Shown here piece after piece: positions 404 to 11,500 of a stretch of DNA of 64,000 nt. Where the stretch lies: assembly GCA_965261595.1 (NCBI GenBank), contig CBDHDG010000005.1, forward strand, positions 224,001 through 288,000, in the 5' to 3' direction. A program made the translations under genes and the position numbers. The stretch's first letter is position 1; every line of letters starts with the position of its first letter. The notes under the pieces were generated by a model. It made no database searches. It saw nothing but the letters and a program-made list of their open reading frames with translations, and had not been told where the DNA came from. The DNA comes from a bacterium (GTDB lineage Bacteria > UBA8248 > JACPRG01 > G963555815).

Positions 404-1345
404 TCAGCACAGGAGTGAGATAAGGGCTTCCTCGGGGGGAGTGGAGGCCTTCGCCGGAGAGGATGAGGCATTCAGCCGGGTGAGATAGAAAAAGGTTAAA
501 AAGGCTGGAACCTGGACTTTGATACGCTGGATGCCGAATACAGCGGCGCAGGTCTCCAACCATTCTTTCGCGGATGACGCGAGAGGCGAGAGCAGACAGT
601 CAAAAGCAAAGCCGGCCACGTCGAACATAATGTTCCCGAGTCGGGTCGCTTCGAAATCGATGATTCCAGCCAGTCGACGGTTGATTCCAGCGGATCGCGG
701 AGACGTGACCAGTACATTGTAAGTCGTGAGTGAGCCGTGCACGATTTTGTCCGTGCACCCTGCCCAGTCTTCTTGGCCGGCGTTGTCTAATACTCGTTGG
801 AGCGCTGAATTCAGCCGATCGGTCAAGTTTTCTTTATGAACCGCAAAAAATTCACCCGCGGCTTTTGTGGGATTGAAATCTTTAGCGTGAGTGCCGATCC
901 TTCGTTGCGCCTTGGCTTCGCACAGGTCGTGAACCCGGGTTTGGTTTTGGAAATCTCTGAGCCAAAATGCCATGTCTTGAAAGATTCGTTTTCTTGAAGA
1001 GCCATCCATGGTTCCCATCACGTGGTGAAGCGAGACCCCCTGGAGCTCTTCCGTGATGAGGAAATGGGACCCATCGGGAATGGCTCTCCCGTGGCAGAGC
1101 AGCCTGGGGACGAAACCGGCTGAATCCTCCAAGGCCTCCAGGACGTCCGCCTCATCGGCGACGGACATCGAAGGCTGCGGTCCCCCCTGAAACTTGAGGA
1201 AAATCGGGTTGGACGGCTCTCTCAGCGTAAGGCGATAGGTGAGGTTGCGGCCTTCGAGGTTACAGGCCTCGATGGCCAAAATTTCCTCCGGGCGGGTCTG
1301 AAGCGTCGAGGCCAGGGTCCGGCGGATCGCGTCCTTCGTTATCAA
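404..1345 (-). CDS. Aminoglycoside phosphotransferase (APH)/kinase-fold protein with an atypical catalytic loop
   Basis: Motifs FLK, E (helix C), VPRLL, LITEEL, HGSLTTYN (Brenner-like, Asp replaced by Ser) and IIDFE; likely TTG start overlaps the stop of the ATP-grasp gene (TTGA). Confidence 0.75.
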   Translation of the reverse strand: MITKDAIRRTLASTLQTRPEEILAIEACNLEGRNLTYRLTLREPSNPIFLKFQGGPQPSMSVADEADVLEALEDSAGFVPRLLCHGRAIPDGSHFLITEELQGVSLHHVMGTMDGSSRKRIFQDMAFWLRDFQNQTRVHDLCEAKAQRRIGTHAKDFNPTKAAGEFFAVHKENLTDRLNSALQRVLDNAGQEDWAGCTDKIVHGSLTTYNVLVTSPRSAGINRRLAGIIDFEATRLGNIMFDVAGFAFDCLLSPLASSAKEWLETCAAVFGIQRIKVQVPAFLTFFYLTRLNASSSPAKASTPPEEALISLLC

Positions 1346-2343
1346 ACCGGCCCCCGAGAGAGGAGATGGGCGATCGCCTTGGAGATTTCCAATCCGGTCA
1401 ACTCCTCGATCCACCCCCACTGCCCGTTGGGATTCAACTCCAGAAATGTGACGGCGCCGTCGGGCGACACAACGAGGTCGACGGTCGAGAACGCAAGACC
1501 GAGCCGCTTCGTGAGAGCGACACATTTCTCCGCGAGCTCCGGCTGAAGATCTTGAGCGACATGGGGGGTGTTCGGAAAGTCATAGCGCCGCCAATCCACG
1601 CTTGTTTGCGGCGTTGCTTGGGAGTGAATTTCACAGGCGAATGTTTCTTGGCCGACAACGGTGACCCTGAGCTCGCACTGCTTTTCCAGATAGGCTTGGT
1701 AGGTTGCCGGGCAAACCGCCAGTGGGTCATCGCGCCCAACGTCCTTGTCCTCAAGAAGAGCGGTATAGATGCAGTATTGCTCCTCGGGATTGGGCGCCCG
1801 GGGCGGGCCCTTTGAAACGAGCTTTGCCGCGCAACGCTGTCCCCGGTCCCGAAGAGCGGTGTAAAAGTCCCGCACCTCATCCGGCCGCGCGGAAACCAAC
1901 GTCTCCGGTATGCAGAACCCGCAGGCCCGGGCCACCTTGAGTTGATAGAGCTTGTAAGAAGCGGTTCGAATTGATTCGGGATGGCTGACCCAGGGACAAT
2001 CCAGAGAATACAAGGTCCCATAAAGTTGAGCCTTCAGCTCCGAAGCGGCAAATGCGCGCGCGCCGGGATCGGTAACCGAGGAATCCGGAACGGGCGCCTC
2101 GGGCCGGCGAACCCAGATCGAGGCGATATCTTTTCCGTCTACCACGACCTCATCCACCACGACCCTGACTTGCGGAGCTCCTGACCCGATCCGGTAGTCG
2201 ATGTGGGCGGATGTTCCGAAAATCTCGGTGTTCAGCCGAACATAAGACGCACCGATCCGTCCGAGCTCTTTTTCAACGAGCGAGGCGGTCTCATCGCCCT
2301 CGCTGGTCAGGATCAAAACAGTCGGCGGCGACGACGGTTCCAC
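1342..2343 (-). CDS. MvdC/MvdD-family ATP-grasp RiPP (graspetide) macrocyclase
   Basis: VLILT..D, WVRRP, KLYQLKVA..GF.IPETLVS, ELRVTVVG, EIHSQ, VDWRR, FLELNPNGQWGWIE. Confidence 0.9.
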   Translation of the reverse strand: MEPSSPPTVLILTSEGDETASLVEKELGRIGASYVRLNTEIFGTSAHIDYRIGSGAPQVRVVVDEVVVDGKDIASIWVRRPEAPVPDSSVTDPGARAFAASELKAQLYGTLYSLDCPWVSHPESIRTASYKLYQLKVARACGFCIPETLVSARPDEVRDFYTALRDRGQRCAAKLVSKGPPRAPNPEEQYCIYTALLEDKDVGRDDPLAVCPATYQAYLEKQCELRVTVVGQETFACEIHSQATPQTSVDWRRYDFPNTPHVAQDLQPELAEKCVALTKRLGLAFSTVDLVVSPDGAVTFLELNPNGQWGWIEELTGLEISKAIAHLLSRGPV

Positions 2344-2362
2344 GAATTTGCCCGAGGATGAT

Positions 2363-2551
2363 CTAGTCGTCCGAATTGTAATCCATCGGATCGCTGGTGG
2401 TCAGGGAGGACGAGGTCATTCCCCGATTCGACATGTCGACAATATATTCCCGCTTGCTGAAAAGAAGCGGCTCGGGACCCGGCGGATCTTCAGCCGGAAT
2501 CTTGATTTCTTCTACGGACGGCTCAACGTGTGCTGTCTTGGCTGAACTCAT
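2363..2551 (-). CDS. Putative graspetide precursor peptide (62 aa)
   Basis: AGGGAGG RBS 5 nt before ATG; ends 19 nt before the ATP-grasp gene; leader-like PEPLLFSK; Ser/Thr/Asp-rich C-terminus TSSSLTTSDPMDYNSDD. Confidence 0.8.
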   Translation of the reverse strand: MSSAKTAHVEPSVEEIKIPAEDPPGPEPLLFSKREYIVDMSNRGMTSSSLTTSDPMDYNSDD

Positions 2552-2720
2552 CGAATCCTCCCTGAATGGATGTCGGCGCTTCAAACCTCGAGGATCGAAA
2601 CACCTTTTTCGTCTTGGGCGCAACGTAACACACATCAAAACTCGCAATCAACCGAGATCCCGCCTCCCCCATCCAGCGCGGTGGCCAAAAGCAATCTTCC
2701 GCCGGTTGCTTCGCTTGCCC

Positions 2721-3314
2721 TCAAAACTCGATTCCGGGTTGCGCCTTGATTCCAGCCCGATATGGATGCTTCACCATCTTCATTTCCGTAACCAGGTCGG
2801 CCATTTCGATTAATTCGGGCTTGGCCCCGCGTCCGGTGAGTATCACATGAAGCATCTCCCGCTTTTTTTGAAGTGCGTCCAGGACTTCATCGAGCGACAG
2901 TTGATTCTTGTGGATGGCCACATTGATTTCGTCGAGCAGGACCATGCCGATGTCGCGCCGCTCCAACAATTCCAGCGACTTCTCCCAGGCCTTTCGAGCC
3001 GCGCGCCGGTCCATCTCTTGATCCTGGGTGATCCAGGTGAACCCATCACCCATCCGGCGCCACTCGACCTGGTCCCCAAATCTCTTGAACACTTCCGTTT
3101 CGCCGGTGGGCATCACGCCTTTAATGAATTGAACGACCCCGACACGAATTCCGTGGTGAATCGTCCGCAGCAGCATCCCGAACGCCGCCGTGCTCTTCCC
3201 TTTCCCCGGACCCGTGTGGACGATGATCAGGCCTTTTTCCCGCGTGGCCATCGCCTTTCGCTTTGCATGAGATTCATGGATGCGCTGCATCTTGTCTTGA
3301 TAGGCATCACCCAT
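2721..3314 (-). CDS. cobO: Cob(I)yrinic acid a,c-diamide adenosyltransferase (CobO/BtuR)
   Basis: VHTGPGKGKSTAAFG, QFIKG, LDEIN, TGRGA, KHPY...AQPGIEF. Confidence 0.95.
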   Translation of the reverse strand: MGDAYQDKMQRIHESHAKRKAMATREKGLIIVHTGPGKGKSTAAFGMLLRTIHHGIRVGVVQFIKGVMPTGETEVFKRFGDQVEWRRMGDGFTWITQDQEMDRRAARKAWEKSLELLERRDIGMVLLDEINVAIHKNQLSLDEVLDALQKKREMLHVILTGRGAKPELIEMADLVTEMKMVKHPYRAGIKAQPGIEF

Positions 3315-4086
3315 TTCTGATTCTCCTGGAGAAACCGTAATGGCGTTCGCCGTTGTGCACCCAATAGTGGGTCTCGACCTCGAACACCTTTCGCATCAAC
3401 CCGGGGAGCAACACTTCGTTCGTTGTCCCTTCGGCCACCAGCCGGCCGTCATGGACCAGCAAGAGCCGATCGCAGAATTGTTGGGCAAGGTTCAGGTCGT
3501 GAATCGCCACCGTAATCGTCCGCCCGTCGGCCGCCTGTCCGCGTAGGATGTCGAGAAGGTCCAGGCAGTGCCGAATATCCAGGTTCGCGGTGGGCTCGTC
3601 CAACAAAAGGACAGACGCCTCGGTCGCCAGGGTCCGCGCCAGGAGAACGCGCTGACGCTCTCCCCCTGAGAGATCGTTGACCGGCCGGCCTTTGAGCGAG
3701 TCCGCGTCGACCGCGCTGAGGGCGGCATCCACGGCCCGCCGGTCCTCAGGCCCCTCAGACCCGAACCGTTTTACGTGCGCGTACCGTCCCATCATCACAA
3801 CGTCTTCAATGGGCAGGGAAAAAGGGACTTCCGTGCTTTGGGGCAGGTAACCCACGCGGCGGGCCACTTCTCGCCGGGACAGAGCGGACAAGTCCCGCCG
3901 ATCGATTTTCACGCGACCCGCCGCCAGCGGGACGAGCCCCGTCAGGGCGCGCAACAAGGTGGATTTCCCCGCGCCGTTGGGCCCAAGAATCCCCGTGACC
4001 GCTCCCTCCTCGAACGAGAGCGTGACATCCCGCAGCACGGACCGTCCGCCGAGCTCCACGCTTCCATCTTCCATGGCCAGCTTCAT
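3307..4086 (-). CDS. Corrinoid/iron-chelate ABC transporter ATPase (BtuD-like)
   Basis: GPNGAGKS, LSGGERQR, LLDEPT; the ATG at 4086 overlaps the permease stop. Confidence 0.9.
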   Translation of the reverse strand: MKLAMEDGSVELGGRSVLRDVTLSFEEGAVTGILGPNGAGKSTLLRALTGLVPLAAGRVKIDRRDLSALSRREVARRVGYLPQSTEVPFSLPIEDVVMMGRYAHVKRFGSEGPEDRRAVDAALSAVDADSLKGRPVNDLSGGERQRVLLARTLATEASVLLLDEPTANLDIRHCLDLLDILRGQAADGRTITVAIHDLNLAQQFCDRLLLVHDGRLVAEGTTNEVLLPGLMRKVFEVETHYWVHNGERHYGFSRRIRNG

Positions 4087-5120
4087 CAGAACACCTCGGT
4101 CCGTTTCCGATGCCGCAAGACAAGATACAAGAAAAACGGCCCCCCCAGACCGGATGTCAAAATCCCCAGACGGATTTCCTCTCCGGCGAGGATTGAGCGG
4201 GAGAGAAGATCCATTCCCGTCAGCAAGACCGCGCCCGCCAGCATGCTCGCGGGCAAAAGACGCCGGTGGTCCGGTCCCAGAAGCAGCCGGACGATGTGAG
4301 GGACGAGCAGGCCGACGAACCCGATGACGCCGGCGACGGCCACGGCCGCTCCAGCCGCTCCGGCCGCGACCGTGAGGATCCAGCGCTTGGTTTGGGCCGT
4401 GTTCACCCCCAAGGCCAGGGCCGACTCCTCTCCGGTCATCATCACGTTGAGCTCTCTCGAAAAGCACAAAGAGGCGGCAACGCAGACGACGAAAAAGGGG
4501 AGGATCATGAAAACATGCTCCCACGTCCGGTTTGTCAGACCGCCCATCAGCCAGAAGAGGATCTGGCGTCCGATCTCCCATTCGCGGACGCTGAAGCTCA
4601 AGACCAGTGAGGTGAGCGCGCCGGCAATCGAGTTGATGGCAAGGCCGCAGAGGATGAGCGTGGCGATGGGCGTCCGTCCCCGATGGGTCGATAACGCGTA
4701 AACCTGGAAGGCGGTCAACAAGGCCGCGCCGAAGGCCATCCCGGGCACCGCCCAGATGGAGAGGGCGCCCAGGCCGAGCGCGATCGCCGAGGTCGCCCCC
4801 AGCGCGCCCCCCATGCTGACACCGATGACACCGGGGCTCGCCATCGGATTCCGGAACAGTCCCTGGAGGAGCGCCCCGGACAAGGCCAAAGCCGCTCCGA
4901 CCAGCGCGCCCGTCAGGACGCGCGGAAGGCGGATGTACCAAACGATCGCCCGTTCCTGTTGACTGATGTTCGCGGCTTCCGGGGATCTCAATCCCGTTTC
5001 GACCAGAAGAACATCGGCCACTTTGTCCCAGCTCAAATCCGCCGGCCCGGACGTGATCCCGAGAGTCATCGTCACAACGAGAAGCCCCAGGCAAAGGCTC
5101 AGGATGATCGAGCCTCTCAT
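4086..5120 (-). CDS. FecCD/BtuC-family ABC permease
   Basis: IRLPR, LQGLFRNPMASP, IGFVGLLVPH; hydrophobic. Confidence 0.92.
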   Translation of the reverse strand: MRGSIILSLCLGLLVVTMTLGITSGPADLSWDKVADVLLVETGLRSPEAANISQQERAIVWYIRLPRVLTGALVGAALALSGALLQGLFRNPMASPGVIGVSMGGALGATSAIALGLGALSIWAVPGMAFGAALLTAFQVYALSTHRGRTPIATLILCGLAINSIAGALTSLVLSFSVREWEIGRQILFWLMGGLTNRTWEHVFMILPFFVVCVAASLCFSRELNVMMTGEESALALGVNTAQTKRWILTVAAGAAGAAVAVAGVIGFVGLLVPHIVRLLLGPDHRRLLPASMLAGAVLLTGMDLLSRSILAGEEIRLGILTSGLGGPFFLYLVLRHRKRTEVF

Positions 5121-5239
5121 GGGCGCATTCCTTGAACGAGATCCCCGATGTCTTCAACGACGTAACGGGCGCCGGTTGTGACATGGGCAAAGAGAATGGC
5201 GAGGGCTCGTTCGTTCATGAGATGTCTGAAGAGACCCTC

Positions 5240-6085
5240 TTATTCAGCGAGAATGGCTCGTCGAATCAAACGCGCCCGCAAATCGGCGGCGGCGTCGGCG
5301 ATGAAATGGGAGTTGGTGTACAAGGTCCGGGCCGGGATTCCGATCACACGCCGGGTGCGCACCGCCGTCAGGGACGAATAGCGGAGATCCGTCCGAAGCC
5401 TCTTGATCCATCCCTCGAACTGAAGGTAACCCTCGCTGACCAGAATCAAGTCAGGATCCACTTTCAGGACCCATTCCAACTGGACGACCCTGTGGCCGTC
5501 GATTTCCGATGCGGCATTTTTCAACCCGGCGTACTTGATAATCACCTCCACGCTGGTGTTTTTGCCGGAGGTCCAACCGCCCGGTGTGTAGAACAAAGCG
5601 CTCAGCCCGGAGCTCGGAAGACCCTCCAGGTTTTGAAGCTTTCGATCCATTTTCCGGATGAGGCTCTCCGCTTTCAGCGTTTTCCCGATGGCCCGCGCCA
5701 CCACGAGAATGCTCCGGCGGATGTCCTCCAAGCCAAGCGGTGTGGGCACCCTCGTTACGGACACTCCCGCTTGCCTGATCAGGGCCTCCACTTCTTTGGC
5801 GGCTCGGGTGGAAAGAAGCACCAAGTCGGGACCCAGCTCCAGGATGCTCTCCACATCGTCTCGCCTGAGCCGGGGAATCCCCTTGGCCAGACTGAAAACA
5901 TAACACTTGAGCGGATCGTTCGCGTACCGCGAAACCCCGACGACTCTCTCTCGGGATGCCAGGGAAAGCAGAATTTCATCCGTGACGACGGACAGCGAGA
6001 CGATTCGCTTCGGCGCCGCCGCGGCCGATCCTTCAGCGCCGAAACACAGGATCATAAAGAGGAGAGGGAGGACCCAGCGTTTCAC
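5240..6085 (-). CDS. BtuF-like periplasmic binding protein
   Basis: Signal peptide, PKRIVSL..TDEIL, E.IL...PDLV. Confidence 0.85.
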   Translation of the reverse strand: MKRWVLPLLFMILCFGAEGSAAAAPKRIVSLSVVTDEILLSLASRERVVGVSRYANDPLKCYVFSLAKGIPRLRRDDVESILELGPDLVLLSTRAAKEVEALIRQAGVSVTRVPTPLGLEDIRRSILVVARAIGKTLKAESLIRKMDRKLQNLEGLPSSGLSALFYTPGGWTSGKNTSVEVIIKYAGLKNAASEIDGHRVVQLEWVLKVDPDLILVSEGYLQFEGWIKRLRTDLRYSSLTAVRTRRVIGIPARTLYTNSHFIADAAADLRARLIRRAILAE

Positions 6086-6723
6086 GGCCGGATCACCACA
6101 ATGCTCAGGTCACTGAAATCTCCGGAAAGGGCGTCCAGGCGTCCTTTCCATGTGCGCTCATCCAGTGAAAGAGATTCGAACACGATGACTTCGCGATCGG
6201 GCTCGACCCCTCTGGCCAAAAGATCCCCCGCGATATCGCGAGGCATGAAATCCCAAGGATGCGGCAGGACGATGGCGCCGCGTCCCAATTGCAGCGCCGA
6301 CGCGAGAAATCCTTTGTCCCGCTCTAAATCGCCTCTCTTGTGAAATGTGACAAAGACCAGATCCTCAAAGGCCAAACCCGTCTTCGCCGCGGCAAGTTGG
6401 ACTGAGCTGATCCCCGGGATCACTTCCACCCGCTCCCCGCAGGCCTTTTCTACGCGCGCCAACAGTTGATGTCCGGAAAAGCTTGGATCTCCCATGAAAC
6501 ACACGACACAACGCCGGCCGCTTTTGTGAAGAGAAGCCACTTCATCGAGCTTTTCTTCCTGGTCCTTGTACGTCAGGATGACCCGCTTCCCCCGACCGAT
6601 TTGTTCCACCACTTTGAGCACCGTGGCAAACCCCGCGACGATATCCGCCTCTTCCAGGAGACGGCGGGCGCTCAACGTCAGAAGTTCGAGGTCGCCCGGT
6701 CCTACGCCAACTGCGTAAATCAT
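6082..6723 (-). CDS. cbiE: Precorrin-6Y/cobalt-precorrin-7 C5-methyltransferase (CbiE-like tetrapyrrole methylase)
   Basis: VGVGPGD, GDPSFSG, IPGISSVQLAAA, ESLSLDER. Confidence 0.8.
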   Translation of the reverse strand: MIYAVGVGPGDLELLTLSARRLLEEADIVAGFATVLKVVEQIGRGKRVILTYKDQEEKLDEVASLHKSGRRCVVCFMGDPSFSGHQLLARVEKACGERVEVIPGISSVQLAAAKTGLAFEDLVFVTFHKRGDLERDKGFLASALQLGRGAIVLPHPWDFMPRDIAGDLLARGVEPDREVIVFESLSLDERTWKGRLDALSGDFSDLSIVVIRP

Positions 6724-6726
6724 CTC

Positions 6727-8589
6727 TCAACCCGCCCTCAGCAACTGCCGGATTCTTTTTGGCCGAAGCGCTTCCAGCGTGACCACGGGGATGTTCCAAC
6801 GAGAACCCCACCCCTGCATCATGCCCATCGTGAAAGGACCCTCTTCGGTATCGACGAGCAGAAGATCCACCCGGCTTTTCGAGAAATGATGGAGCTCTCG
6901 CTCTGCCGCGCGGACGGGATCGATGTTGCCGAACCCGACGGTCGGCCGGCCATCCGAAACCAGAACGAGAGATTGCGCAATGGCGGGATGTCGGCGCCGA
7001 GAGTGAGCCAGCACCTGACGGGCTGTGTGAAGCGCATGAGCGAGCGGCGTTTTCCCCCCGACCGGAAGATCGCGTATGCTCCGTTGAGCCCTTCGAACGC
7101 TCCGCGTTGGAGGCAGGACAACGCGAGCCTCCGAGCCCTGAAATGTGATCAATCCCACTTCGTCGCGTTTTTGATAGGCCTCTTCCAAAAGACCCAACAG
7201 GACGCCTTTGGTCACCTCCATTCGACGGCGCGCCCCCATCGAGCGGCTTGCGTCCAGAACAAACAGGAAAAGGCGTTGATAAGGCGTGCGCCGTATCTTC
7301 TCCCGGAGATCTGTCGATCGAATGGAAATCGCCGTGTCCTCAGTCCTCCCGTTTTCCGGTCTGATGACAGCGGCGCGAAGTGTGGCGTCCAAAGCGAGGT
7401 CCGTCACTTTCCCTTTCGGAAACCTTGCGCGCACATAAGGGCCGCGAAAGGCTTTGGCCGTCTCCCATCCGCTCCGTCCGCCCGGCTGAACGATGCGGCG
7501 CTTCATTCGGGACTCCGTTTGCGGATTCCGAACGGGTCCCTCAGTGAGGGGATCGAACCGCATGGAAGCATCGGGATCCGCAGATCGCGGGGCCTCCGTT
7601 TGTTGCTTTGGCCGTGGCGGGGCGGGGGGGCGGGGGGGGGAGGGGGGCGGCGGATCCGGCGGATTCTTTCTCCGGTGCGCCAGCGCGAACTCCGCAATCC
7701 TTTCCACGTCGTCCCGGTTGACGGTCTTTCGTCCTTCCCAGGCGGCCAAGGTCATTGCGCCCTTCTGGATCACGATATCGGCCCGAAGCCCCTCTACATG
7801 CTCCCGGCAACAGATCGCGGAGACCTCCTCGGTGATCTCTTCGGGAATACGAACTCCGCCCATCATGTCCCGCGCGCGAAGGATGCGTTCGCGCAATCGC
7901 GTTTCTTCATTCGCCCAGGTCCGCGCGAAGGCCTCGGGATCCGCCTCGAACGCAATCGTCCGCCGAACGATTTCGGTCCGTTGAGCCGGGTCGGAAAGAT
8001 TCTCCACTTGAACGGACATTCCGAAGCGGTCGAGCAGTTGGGGACGCAGCTCACCTTCTTCCGGGTTCATGGTGCCGATGAGAATGAACCGCGCCGGATG
8101 CCGAACGGAAACGCCTTCCCGCTCAACAACGTTGACCCCGCTCACGGCCACATCCAGCAGGATATCGACCAGGTGATCGGGCAGCAGGTTCACTTCATCG
8201 ATGTAAAGAACACCCCGGTGGACGCGAGCCAGGAGGCCGGGTTCGAAGCGCTTCTCCCCGAGGCGAATCGCCTTCTCCAGGTCGATCGTGCCGAGTACAC
8301 GATCCTCTGTGGCGCCGATGGGCAGGGACACGAAGGGCGTAGGGACCTCATCGGTTGCTGTCTCGCTTGTTTCCTCGTATGGATCATCCGGGTTGCTGTT
8401 GTAATGGGAATCTCGAATCACCCGAATGTCCGGGAGAAGGTTCGCCAGCCCACGGGCGGCGCAAGACTTGCCGGATCCTTTCACGCCGGAAATCAAAACA
8501 CCCCTGATGTTGGGGTTGATCCCATTCAGGATGAGAGCGAGTAACATGTCTTCCTGGCCGACGATGGCCGAGAACGGGTAGTCGTTCAC
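6727..8589 (-). CDS. ChlD/BchD-like chelatase subunit (AAA+, Pro-rich linker, vWA), probable partner of CobN
   Basis: YPFSAIVGQ, GVKGSGKS, LYIDEVNLL, NPEEGELRPQLLDRFG, poly-Pro linker, DASRSM MIDAS motif. Confidence 0.9.
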   Translation of the reverse strand: MNDYPFSAIVGQEDMLLALILNGINPNIRGVLISGVKGSGKSCAARGLANLLPDIRVIRDSHYNSNPDDPYEETSETATDEVPTPFVSLPIGATEDRVLGTIDLEKAIRLGEKRFEPGLLARVHRGVLYIDEVNLLPDHLVDILLDVAVSGVNVVEREGVSVRHPARFILIGTMNPEEGELRPQLLDRFGMSVQVENLSDPAQRTEIVRRTIAFEADPEAFARTWANEETRLRERILRARDMMGGVRIPEEITEEVSAICCREHVEGLRADIVIQKGAMTLAAWEGRKTVNRDDVERIAEFALAHRRKNPPDPPPPSPPRPPAPPRPKQQTEAPRSADPDASMRFDPLTEGPVRNPQTESRMKRRIVQPGGRSGWETAKAFRGPYVRARFPKGKVTDLALDATLRAAVIRPENGRTEDTAISIRSTDLREKIRRTPYQRLFLFVLDASRSMGARRRMEVTKGVLLGLLEEAYQKRDEVGLITFQGSEARVVLPPTRSVRRAQRSIRDLPVGGKTPLAHALHTARQVLAHSRRRHPAIAQSLVLVSDGRPTVGFGNIDPVRAAERELHHFSKSRVDLLLVDTEEGPFTMGMMQGWGSRWNIPVVTLEALRPKRIRQLLRAG

Positions 8590-11500
8590 TTCATGTCCTC
8601 CAGGGCGGCTTCGTTTTCCAGGAAGATTTGTTTCAGTTGAGCCGCCATTTCATCCGGCGGCGACTCCCAATATCCTCGCTCCTGCGCTTCCAGCAATCGC
8701 TCGACCATGCCCCGGAGGGCCCAGGGATTCTTTTCCTGTAAGAAATTTCGCACGGATTCGTCGAAGATATACGCTTCGGTGACCTTTTCATACATCCAGG
8801 GCTCGATGACGTGCGCGGTCACGTCATACCCGAAGAGATAGTCCACTGTGACGGCCAGCTCGAAAGCGCCGCGGTAGCCGTGTCGTTGAATCGATTTGAT
8901 CCACTTGGGGTTCACGACCCGGGAGCGAAAAACGCGCACGACCTCCTCGCGCAAGTCTCGAATCTTCACGCGATCGGGTTTCGACGTGTCCCCGAAGTAC
9001 GCCTTCGGATTCTTCCCGGTCAGCGAGCGAATGGAGGCGATCATCCCCCCATGGAACTGGAAGTAGTCATCACTGTCGAAGATGTCGTGCTCCCGGTTGT
9101 CCTGGTTCTGCACGGCCACATTCACGCCGGCGAGGCGGCGCCGAAACTCGTCAAAGGCCCGGACGCCGGGTGCGTCCCGGCCGTAGGCGTACCCGCCCCA
9201 CGCCACGTAGACATCGGTGAGGTCTTGGTCCGTTGACCAGTTGCGCCCATCGATCAAACTCAGCAGACCGGCCCCGTAGCTTCCCGGCTTGCTTCCGAAG
9301 ATTCGGTACGCGGCTTTTCGAGGATCAACGCCCCGCCGGACTTCTTCGGAGATGTTGCCCCGAACGTAGTTTTGCTCCGGAGACTCATCCAGATCAGCGA
9401 CGGTCTTCACGGCCTCGTCCAGAAGCTCAACGACATTCGGGAACGCGTCCCGGAAGAATCCGCTGATGCGAACCGTTACATCAATGCGGGGGCGTCCCAG
9501 TTCTTGGAGCGGAATGACCTCGATACCGATGATCCGCCGGTTGATGCCTTGCCATACCGGCCGAACACCGAGGAGATGGAGAATCTCGCCGATGTCGTCA
9601 CCACCGGTGCGCATGTTGGATGTCCCCCAGACGACGATGCCGATGGAACGCGGATATTCTCCCGTCTCTTTCAGATAGCGTTCCAGCACCCCTTCGGCGG
9701 CGCGCCGGCCGACTTTCACGGCGGTCTGGGTCGGGATGCCGCGGATGTCCACGGAGTAAAAATTGCGCCCGGTGGGTAGGATGGTGGCCATTCCCCGCGT
9801 GGGGGCGCCGCTCGGGCCGGGCGGGACGAACCGGCCTTCCAGCGCGACCAGGATATTGGAAATCTCGTCCGGGACCCGCTCCAGACGAGGCTTGACCTCC
9901 TCGGTCAGGAACGCGAGGGTTTTGGCTGAGCTCGGGCCGGCGGGGCGGGTTTCGGCCACCACCTCGCGCGAGCGTTGTTCTAAAAGTTCAATCAAATCAC
10001 CCGCCGTCCGGCAACCGGGATAGGAGACCCCCTTCGCGGGATCCTCAACCAGCGCCTCATAATCGACCCCGAGATCTTCCGCGACGGCGGCCGGCAAGCC
10101 GAGAACGCCGGACTGGTCCAAACGGACCAGTGAGACCAGGAGATCCGTCAGGCGGCCTTCTTCCGGCATTTCGCCCAGGACATGCAAACCGTCTCGAATC
10201 TGGGATTCCTTGATCTCGCAGAGATAACCATCGAACGTCTGAATGAAGTCATCCAACTCCTCCGCGGATGGCGGCCGGTCGTAATTCAGGTCCCGGTAGA
10301 TGCGGCTTTGGTCGATCAAATGCAGCATTTGCTCGGCGACGAGCGGGCATTTCGACGGATCCATAACGCTGACCTGTGCGTACTCGTCGGCGAGTTGTTC
10401 CAGTTTGACCAAATCTCCGTAGGACTCGGCCCGGGTCATCGGGGGGATCATGTGATCGACAATGACGGCATTCGAGCGACGCTTGGCCTGTGTTCCTTCT
10501 CCCGGATTGTTGATGATGTAAGGATAGATGTTGGGGATGGCGCCCAAGGCAATCTCCGGATAACAAGCTTCACTCAGCCCGATCCCCTTTCCGGGAAGCC
10601 ACTCCAGGTTTCCGTGTTTGCCGACGTGCACAATGGCGTGCGCCCCGAAGTCCTCGCGGATCCATTGGTAATAACTCAGGTAAAAGTGTGTGGGAGGCAG
10701 GTCCGGGCTATGGTAGACGGCGGCCGAGTCTTTCCCGTAGCCCCGGGAGGGCTGGATGCCGACAAAAACGTTGCCGAGCCGCAAACCGGGGATCGCCAGT
10801 CCGTCCGAGGCCATCATGTATGCGCCCGGCGGCTCGCCCCATTGCTCCGTGATGGCCTCGCGTCGGGACGTGGGTAAGCGCTCGAACCGCTCAAGATACC
10901 GCGTTGGACTCAACTTGAAAGGCGTGGAATCAAGATTCTCTTGTGTCTGAAACTCTTCGTCGTGTGTGCAGCCGGCCAAGAGCTCGTGAATCAAGGCGTC
11001 TCCGTTCTCCGGCAAAGGCCCCGTTTGGTATCCCGCCTCTTTCATGGACCGAAGCAGCCGGATAACACTCTCCGGTGTGTCCAGTCCCACGCCGTTGCCG
11101 ACCCGGGCGTCTCGGGTGGGATAGTTATTGAAAAGAACGGCAACGCGCTTTTCAGAGACGGGGGCCCGGCGAAGCGCGCACCAGGAAATCGCCAAACGGG
11201 CGATCTGACGGACCCGATCGTCTAACGGAACGTTGCGGCGCAATTCGACTCCCAGCGCGTCATCCCGTTCGCCATCTCCTTTAAAGGTCATGGGGACCGA
11301 GATGATCCGGCCGTCGAATTCTGGAAGGGCCACGTGCATGGCGACGTCCTGCGGACTCAGGCCTGTCTCCGACGCGCCCCATTCCTCGAGACTGGATCCG
11401 CTGAAGATAGCCTGGATCACCGGGCAATCAAGCCCGTGGGGCGCGCCGAAAGCCAGGGTCGAGATCAACACGTCCGCGTCCGGGAGATGATCGCGAATCA

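Follow-up and report, generated by a model that had tools for sequence, protein, structure and literature searches.

What does a protein with the fold of a phosphotransferase do in a graspetide gene cluster when the Asp that serves enzymes of this fold as the catalytic base has given way to Ser? The question is raised by positions 404-2551 of a 64,000-nucleotide stretch of bacterial DNA (positions 224,001 to 288,000 of contig CBDHDG010000005.1, assembly GCA_965261595.1; hereafter the window), whose minus strand carries three co-oriented genes coding for a small peptide, an ATP-grasp ligase and a protein with the aminoglycoside phosphotransferase (APH) fold. An earlier note, made from the sequence alone, took the locus for a new type of cluster for graspetides, the ribosomally made, post-translationally modified peptides (RiPPs) of ATP-grasp ligases, and suggested that the product might be further modified by the kinase-fold protein. 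Based on the family relationships of all three products, the conservation of their gene order and the pattern of residues at the active site of the third, we propose that the locus is very probably a graspetide cassette and that its third protein belongs to an APH subfamily marked by the replacement of the catalytic Asp. We further propose, with a probability of roughly 45%, that this protein is an ATP- and Mg-binding enzyme with a remodeled active site that works with the ligase on the precursor, and that what it does is probably something other than ordinary phosphorylation.

The cassette, its ligase and its precursor peptide

The cassette begins with the precursor gene (2551-2363 including the stop codon, minus strand), which is preceded on the same strand by a Shine-Dalgarno sequence, GGGAGGA, read from the sequence at 2556..2562 and ending 5 nt before the ATG. 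It codes for a peptide of 62 amino acids, MSSAKT...PEPLLFSKREYIVDMSNRGMTSSSLTTSDPMDYNSDD, in which a PEPLLFSKRE leader is followed by a core, TSSSLTTSDPMDYNSDD, that extends to the C-terminus. The ligase gene (2343-1342, minus strand) opens with a GTG start 19 nt past the peptide stop codon and codes for 333 amino acids of an MvdC/MvdD-like, graspetide-type ATP-grasp ligase with a pre-ATP-grasp domain and a DWR loop. It is followed by the gene for the APH-fold protein (1345-404, minus strand; 313 amino acids), in which Ser205 stands in for the catalytic Asp (HGS for HGD). The start positions of its relatives point to a TTG start for this last gene, which would overlap the TGA stop of the ligase gene as TTGA; the longest open reading frame (ORF) in the same frame begins farther upstream, within the ligase gene. 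These coordinates, together with the Pfam matches given below for the two larger proteins, bear out the arrangement as it was first described, namely three tightly spaced, co-oriented genes for a 62-residue peptide with a strong ribosome-binding site, an MvdC/D-type ligase and a translationally coupled APH-fold protein.

The ligase, the single one of its kind in the window's genome, matches the Pfam MvdD pre-ATP-grasp domain (PF21068) with 53.4 bits against a cut-off of 27, and gives full-length matches to three NCBIfam models, TIGR04187 (SAV_5884 type; 233.4 bits), TIGR04185 (MvdC; 193.4 bits) and TIGR04184 (MvdD; 182 bits). These scores lie below the curated cut-offs of 350, 425 and 475 bits, respectively, as do the 91.4 bits obtained with TIGR04192 (grasp-with-spasm) against a cut-off of 230, and we therefore regard the ligase as a relative of the named subfamilies and a member of none. 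It aligns end to end with MdnB (5ig8, 1.7e-41) and MdnC (5ig9, 1.7e-35); AMdnB and CdnC align as well, and PsnB does so weakly. Its D(F/W)R loop, present as DWR at residues 250-252, occurs unchanged in 40 of 40 close relatives and falls in the same column as the DWR of MdnB and MdnC; the accessible part of the PsnB preprint describes this loop as essential for macrocyclase activity.

The peptide likewise belongs to a recognizable family. A profile built from nine peptides retrieved 31 clusters of small proteins, and 32 sequences were aligned. The PEPLLFSK stretch, which the earlier note had singled out as leader-like, recurs as P-L-L-F/Y-x-K/R-R-E, with its Pro and Arg invariant in 32 of 32 peptides, as are the first Thr of the core and the C-terminal Asp-Asp. 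Nearly as constant are the second core Thr and the Pro preceding the terminal Asp pair (31/32 each), a Cys two residues after the Thr pair (30/32; absent from the window peptide and from one other, P0321), a later core Thr (30/32, with Ser in the other two) and, four residues ahead of the terminal pair, an Asp (30/32, with Glu in the other two). The resulting consensus of the core is TT-x-C-x-x-T...D-Y/W-x-P-D-D, and many members additionally have Lys in the core. The window peptide, whose gene is single-copy in its genome, is an outlier of the family, with Ser in place of the second Thr, no Cys and an NS where the family has GP (NSDD vs GPDD). Its core contains four Asp, no Lys and no Cys, as well as eight Ser/Thr (five Ser and three Thr), where seven had been counted earlier. 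The associated claim that only omega-esters are possible holds for the window peptide and fails for its family, in which 30 of the 32 peptides have the Cys and many have core Lys. This conserved Cys, which corresponds to the region of window residues 48-49, might serve as a donor for a thioester or thioether or as a metal ligand.

These data bear directly on whether the locus makes a RiPP at all, or whether a RimK-like or other ATP-grasp ligase merely happens to have an ORF upstream. The failure of the ligase to reach any curated NCBIfam cut-off would fit such an explanation. However, the RimK family model gives it 33 bits against the 233 bits of the RiPP maturase model TIGR04187, the MvdD pre-ATP-grasp domain is present, and the upstream peptide keeps its leader and core pattern in 32 sequences. 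Of the 12 loci whose ligase is at least 43% identical to that of the window, all 12 have a homologous peptide gene immediately upstream. By these scores the ligase is unlike RimK-type enzymes, and its close homologs do have upstream peptides. A ligase of another pathway beside a chance ORF is effectively refuted and scarcely conceivable, and we have high confidence in the locus being a genuine cluster of the graspetide type.

Conservation of the trio and phylogeny of the ligase

The gene neighborhoods of related ligases were compared in 159 loci fetched by the ligase profile, 79 of them from species genomes and 80 from metagenomes. In 12 (L080-L089, L093 and L094) the ligase is 43-55% identical to that of the window, and a homolog of the third gene lies directly downstream in 11 of these; in the remaining one, L085, the contig ends ~300 nt past the ligase. 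When every ORF of 163 loci was searched with a hidden Markov model (HMM) of the third protein, two remoter loci came to light, one from a metagenome-assembled genome (MAG) of the Propionibacteriaceae (L040) and another, L138, each with a matching upstream peptide. An APH gene of the HGS or HGA type is found right after the ligase in 13 of the 159 loci, 12 of them by the HMM and L082 by a partial tblastn match at a contig end. Searches that started from the kinase-fold protein instead matched one of 51 species genomes of the window's phylum (one class), which is the window's own genome (G000), and one of 401 genomes in a class-wide actinomycete sample (G321), whose locus (L163) has the peptide, ligase and APH genes in order; both matches adjoin a ligase and a peptide. 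With near-identical loci counted once, the trio occurs in the same order in ten lineages, namely the window, eight metagenome or MAG lineages and one actinomycete genome, and in nine of the ten the distance from the ligase stop to the APH start is -32 to +4 nt. The proposal that the kinase-fold gene is a member of the cassette is accordingly upheld by both its conservation and its coupling. That a single genome of the 51 in the window's phylum was matched suggests that the cassette was acquired horizontally.

The ligases were placed in trees with 23-24 outgroup rows, a random draw from the other 125; eight long-branch rows had been excluded beforehand, and L024_1 was dropped from the careful tree. 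The cassette ligases and a sister subclade whose loci have no kinase-fold gene together make up a single 21-row clade (support 100/99), within which the ten kinase-less rows form a clade of their own (support 100/99). The approximately unbiased test does not reject monophyly of the kinase-bearing rows (p 0.137), and one gain or one loss of the APH gene is thus enough to account for its distribution. The kinase-less sister clade (L001 2980-3575, L004 4494-4977 and L090-L092) has peptides with a PLLF-x-K/R-R leader and a core of the QYVGTDTE(M/F)DPKD type, which sometimes come as two or three tandem ORFs or with repeated cores. Another type of peptide, with a GG-type leader end and tails rich in Cys and Asp (…SSCTMDCDVDCD and …GGTCSDTADCDQ), is found upstream of the ligase in the more distant loci L002 (4584-4907) and L003 (1619-1822), where ligase identity is 39-40%.

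The APH-fold protein and its active site

The third protein matches the Pfam APH family (PF01636) with 48.7 bits against a cut-off of 23.2. Its AlphaFold (AF2) model (predicted local distance difference test, pLDDT, 87.3; predicted template modeling score, pTM, 0.88) matches APH enzymes in Foldseek, and VIA-align superposes it on APH(2'')-IIIa (3tdv_B) with a Z of 24.1 and a root-mean-square deviation of 3.5 Å over 285 residues, and on Cph001 with a Z of 19.8. The model thus clearly predicts the full bilobal fold of the APH and protein-kinase-like proteins. Single-sequence searches with the protein returned one match in a word-indexed search and nothing meaningful in the PDB; the ESM Atlas gave only generic APH clusters. 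With the family profile, the best solved relative is the ‘viomycin kinase’ 8i80 (6.9e-10), i.e. Cph001-D189N, and the capreomycin phosphotransferase Cph (7f0a) is also matched (2e-4). In the profile alignments the HGS columns of the family correspond to the HGN of Cph001-D189N, the HGD of the macrolide phosphotransferase MPH(2') and the HND of APH(2'')-Id. In Cph001, Asp189 is the proposed general base, both D189A and D189N abolish activity, and Mg is bound by Asn194 and Asp211 (PMC10730852; here and below, the accessible part of that paper).

Searched against 1.84 billion cluster representatives, the APH profile gave 2133 matches at E <= 1e-3, 75 at E <= 1e-10 and 28 at E <= 1e-30. An alignment of 54 rows, comprising the window protein, six locus-derived sequences and 47 full-length representatives from ranks 1-56, reveals near-complete retention of the residues expected to handle the nucleotide and the metal: the ATP-binding Lys51 and Glu65 are each present in 54 of 54 rows, and the Mg-binding Asn210 and Asp230 in 52 and 53, respectively. 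Gly204 (53/54), Glu232 (53/54) and Arg235 (52/54) are comparably constant. Position 205, the site of the catalytic general-base Asp in the H-x-D loop, has Ser in 51 rows, Ala in one, Asp in one and a gap in one. Among the ordinary APH proteins at ranks 57-150, by an approximate count with a regular expression, the base position is Asp in 63 of the 83 with a recognizable motif and Ser in 11. Judged by these alignments, the HGS-type proteins are a distinct APH subfamily, in which the nucleotide and metal residues are strongly constrained and the catalytic base is replaced by a specific Ser. Such strict retention of the nucleotide and Mg residues in the company of that Ser argues for function rather than decay.

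One possible function for this protein would be that of an ordinary tailoring kinase which O-phosphorylates a Ser or Thr of the (cyclized) core, as the earlier note had envisaged in proposing to look for a gain of 80 Da. The complete APH fold and the retained ATP and Mg residues are in keeping with it, the core is rich in Ser/Thr, and precedents exist in Cph001, the best profile match, which phosphorylates cyclic peptide antibiotics on a Ser (PMC10730852), and in SprPT, an APH-fold kinase that acts on RiPP precursors in class V lanthipeptide clusters. However, Ser occupies the site of the general base in 51 of the 53 aligned residues, and both of the substitutions at the equivalent site of Cph001 leave that enzyme inactive. 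In addition, the HopA1-type lyase (PF17914) gave no match in the window's genome, which is 96.7% complete, nor any in the flanks of the related loci, whereas control genomes were positive. Since the base is a conserved Ser, the protein does not appear to be a textbook O-kinase; we consider ordinary phosphorylation of the core improbable, and the forecast of +80 Da is not sustained. Formation of lanthionine by a kinase/lyase pair was also considered and was dropped because the genome has no HopA1 lyase.

We instead favor an enzyme that binds ATP and Mg with a remodeled active site and works on the precursor alongside the ligase, a reading that draws on the near-perfect conservation of the Lys, Glu, Asn and Asp, of the Ser and of Arg235. 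That kinase-derived proteins can turn to other chemistry is illustrated by CalN, a ‘pseudokinase’ recently reported to make a nitrile with ATP (PMC13060819, in its accessible part). By analogy with characterized graspetide synthetases, the ligase would bind the PLLF/Y leader of the precursor, phosphorylate the side-chain carboxylates of core Asp residues (D57, D61 and D62 of the window peptide, possibly D54) and close omega-ester rings to the block of Thr and Ser residues around T46 and S47. The APH-fold protein would most likely be directed either at the family's invariant acidic tail (D-x-x-P-D-D-COOH) or at the invariant Thr pair, with a chemistry that would need no Asp base, such as carboxylate attack, nucleotidyl transfer or substrate-assisted phosphoryl transfer. 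Going further, one might posit a novel sort of RiPP enzyme in the HGS-type proteins, whose site, with its Ser and the nearby Arg235, was rebuilt for the ATP-dependent activation of a carboxylate of the acidic tail (an Asp side chain or the C-terminus), giving a second linkage beyond the esters. Candidates would be a thiolactone formed with the conserved Cys, a further lactone, an aspartimide or some modification of the C-terminus, though we regard so specific a scenario as doubtful.

Alternatively, the APH-fold protein might be a non-catalytic, nucleotide-binding partner or chaperone that stabilizes the ligase or presents the precursor to it, like MirC for the rosaritide synthetase MirB, which needs MirC for both activity and stability (PMC13097080; here and below, the accessible part of that paper). 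The absence of the catalytic Asp would fit such a role, the overlap of the ligase stop and the APH start in nine of the ten lineages suggests stoichiometric co-production, and graspetide synthetases that depend on a diverged, enzyme-like partner are documented in the same source. Yet four nucleotide and Mg residues along with a specific Ser are near-invariant, which is more constraint than is usual for a pure scaffold, and the kinase-less sister clade works without any such partner, so that we deem this explanation unlikely, albeit by no means negligible. A third possibility is self-protection, with the protein binding and sequestering or inactivating the mature peptide in the producer, as Cph does with capreomycin. 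APH-family proteins are classic resistance factors, the cassette has no exporter, and Cph confers protection in two ways, by phosphorylating the antibiotic and by sequestering it in the substrate pocket (PMC10730852). Nevertheless, we view this role as very improbable, for the gene is tightly coupled in translation to the ligase and not to an exporter, the kinase-less sister clade has no equivalent at all, and sequestration needs no strict conservation of the catalytic site.

Several points also weigh against the remodeled-enzyme reading that we prefer. Every chemical step in it is drawn by analogy; Ser at the base position is no proof that O-kinase activity is lost, as a base could come from elsewhere in the protein or from an acidic substrate; and conservation of the Lys, Glu, Asn and Asp is also compatible with a nucleotide-binding scaffold. 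The genomic context covers ten lineages, and the ~56 HGS-type cluster representatives are sequences without neighborhoods. The ten-row sister subclade has a similar leader and no APH gene, from which it is evident that ligases of this clade can work without the APH-fold protein. The window peptide itself deviates from its family at four near-invariant positions, and its product may therefore differ from that of the family or be degenerating. Finally, the ligase scores under the cut-off of every named NCBIfam graspetide subfamily.

Surroundings, expression and comparison with known systems

Directly upstream of the cassette lies a row of cobalamin-related genes on the minus strand (2721-8589), which codes for a corrinoid adenosyltransferase of the CobA/CobO/BtuR type (2721-3314), the ATP-binding cassette (ABC) ATPase, FecCD permease and periplasmic binding protein of a FecCD/BtuCDF-type importer (3307-6085), a tetrapyrrole methylase (6082-6723) and a Mg-chelatase/von Willebrand factor A (VWA) protein (6727-8589). 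As this row is common to no related locus, we do not count it as part of the cassette. On the other side, a carbamoyltransferase gene (PF16861) runs on the plus strand; its 3' end (2-181) points toward that of the APH-fold gene, with ~220 nt between them. The G+C content is 54-60% in the cassette and 57-65% in the flanks, with no clear island signature. A conserved fourth gene, such as one for a protease or exporter, was sought and rejected, because the related loci share nothing in their flanks. The unit is therefore one of three genes without a dedicated protease or exporter, and the remark in the earlier note that the cluster encodes neither extends from the window's cassette to the surroundings of the related loci. 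In the metagenome contigs L081 and L086 the cassette adjoins mobile or defense genes: L081 has a phage-type integrase and a type III Cmr CRISPR module (1154-1543 and 7161-10410), besides a gene for a trypsin-like peptidase, and L086 an AbiEi/AbiEii pair (1039-2507). AAA ATPases flank L093 and a Sir2 gene flanks L163. None of the three cassette proteins matched a PADLOC model.

In both of two metatranscriptome runs from one study we found short contigs 100% identical to the peptide gene, with one contig per run spanning the whole gene and one contig extending 69 nt upstream of the peptide ATG. The stretches covered by such contigs lie on the peptide gene (2274-2620), the ligase gene (1698-1872), the APH-fold gene (1012-1188) and a neighbor (2957-3113); with a depth of ~3 and DNA carry-over possible, they are only a weak hint of expression. 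A scan of positions 100-2900 for promoters and terminators gave no signal, with one promoter-like site (0.9 expected), which falls inside the peptide gene, and three terminator-like sites (3.5 expected).

With MdnB and MdnC of the microviridin pathway (group 1) the ligase shares the pre-ATP-grasp and ATP-grasp domains and the D(F/W)R loop, and in both systems a small precursor gene lies directly upstream. The cassette differs in having one ligase instead of two and an additional APH-fold gene, and in its PLLF/Y-x-K/R-R-E leader, that of the microviridins being of the PFFARFL type. The window core TSSSLTTSDPMDYNSDD also lacks the TxRxPSDxDE motif given for microviridins in the accessible part of the PsnB preprint, and the earlier judgment that this core is not of the microviridin type stands.

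A closer parallel in gene content is offered by Carter et al. (2026; PMC13097080), who distinguish 43 graspetide groups and link predicted phosphotransferases to two of these, groups 29 and 37, both uncharacterized and reported from Actinomycetota only. The present locus shares with them the combination of a graspetide synthetase with a predicted phosphotransferase, here a PF01636 gene directly after the ligase, and the peptides of group 37 come near to ours in an N-terminal PL(I/L)L-x-R-R and a K(K/T)DD end. Compared by their peptides, however, the precursors of groups 29 and 37 are unlike this family and have no core in common with it. The motifs TTSCQ, TTTCQ, DYNSDD, PLLFSK, PLLFQK and PLLYQK gave no match among the rows listed of the table of Carter et al. 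The L040 peptide appears in that table as MDR0285446.1 (RODEO data set) without a group number, as do two peptides that combine a PLLFGKRR leader with the related core QYEGTDTELDIK. In a search for HGS-type phosphotransferases of groups 29 and 37, the APH profile (A2) detected in three actinomycete genomes only a generic APH protein of the HGD type, situated away from any ligase, and P0169 had no match in 401 genomes of one class. In the accessible part of Makarova et al. (2022), neither ‘phosphotransferase’ nor ‘APH’ occurs in connection with genes linked to graspetide ligases, and among open-access papers and preprints we found no description of an APH protein without the catalytic Asp in a graspetide cluster.

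For groups 29 and 37, one published in-silico remark already associates graspetides with phosphotransferases (PMC13097080); the association is not a new category, and the locus is in this respect less new than it had first seemed. What is new is, first, a graspetide family without a number, defined by ten contexts and 32 peptides; second, its occurrence outside Actinomycetota, in a small phylum in which the other 50 genomes examined were negative; and third, an accompanying ‘kinase’ that, to judge from its sequence relatives, is of an APH subfamily without the catalytic Asp. The idea of a new graspetide subtype is to that extent supported, as the family is not microviridin-like and is found in none of the numbered groups inspected. 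Nearly all of the known chemistry of graspetides comes from the ATP-grasp ligase, and accessory proteins are barely characterized (MirC and a 2-oxoglutarate (2OG) oxygenase, 2026). Against this background stands a compact and portable cassette of three genes, present in at least two phyla and many metagenomes, whose third part is a kinase-fold protein with a remodeled active site.

Among characterized phosphotransferases, Cph, Cph001 and Vph have the same fold as the third protein, include its best profile match and retain the Mg-binding Asn and Asp, and their substrate is a small cyclic peptide. They differ in that the base Asp189 is required there (PMC10730852) where Ser is found here, and in that they serve resistance in nonribosomal peptide synthetase (NRPS) clusters, not RiPP cassettes. 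SprPT of the class V lanthipeptides is closer in being a PF01636 protein that acts on a ribosomal precursor peptide, but it requires the HopA1-like lyase SprH3 and has no ATP-grasp ligase, whereas the window's genome and the cassettes contain no HopA1 lyase. As a warning for annotation, a ‘phosphotransferase’ adjoining a graspetide ligase is not to be read as ‘+80 Da’. The rosaritide pair MirB-MirC, finally, offers a likeness of another kind, in that MirC is a strictly co-occurring, enzyme-like partner lacking the expected catalytic part (PMC13097080), with the difference that MirC is SurA/PpiC-like and the third protein of the present cassette has a kinase fold. Should the APH-fold protein be such a partner, it would constitute a second, independent case of partner-dependent graspetide synthesis; should it be an enzyme, as we favor, it would bring a new reaction both to RiPP biosynthesis and to the APH fold.

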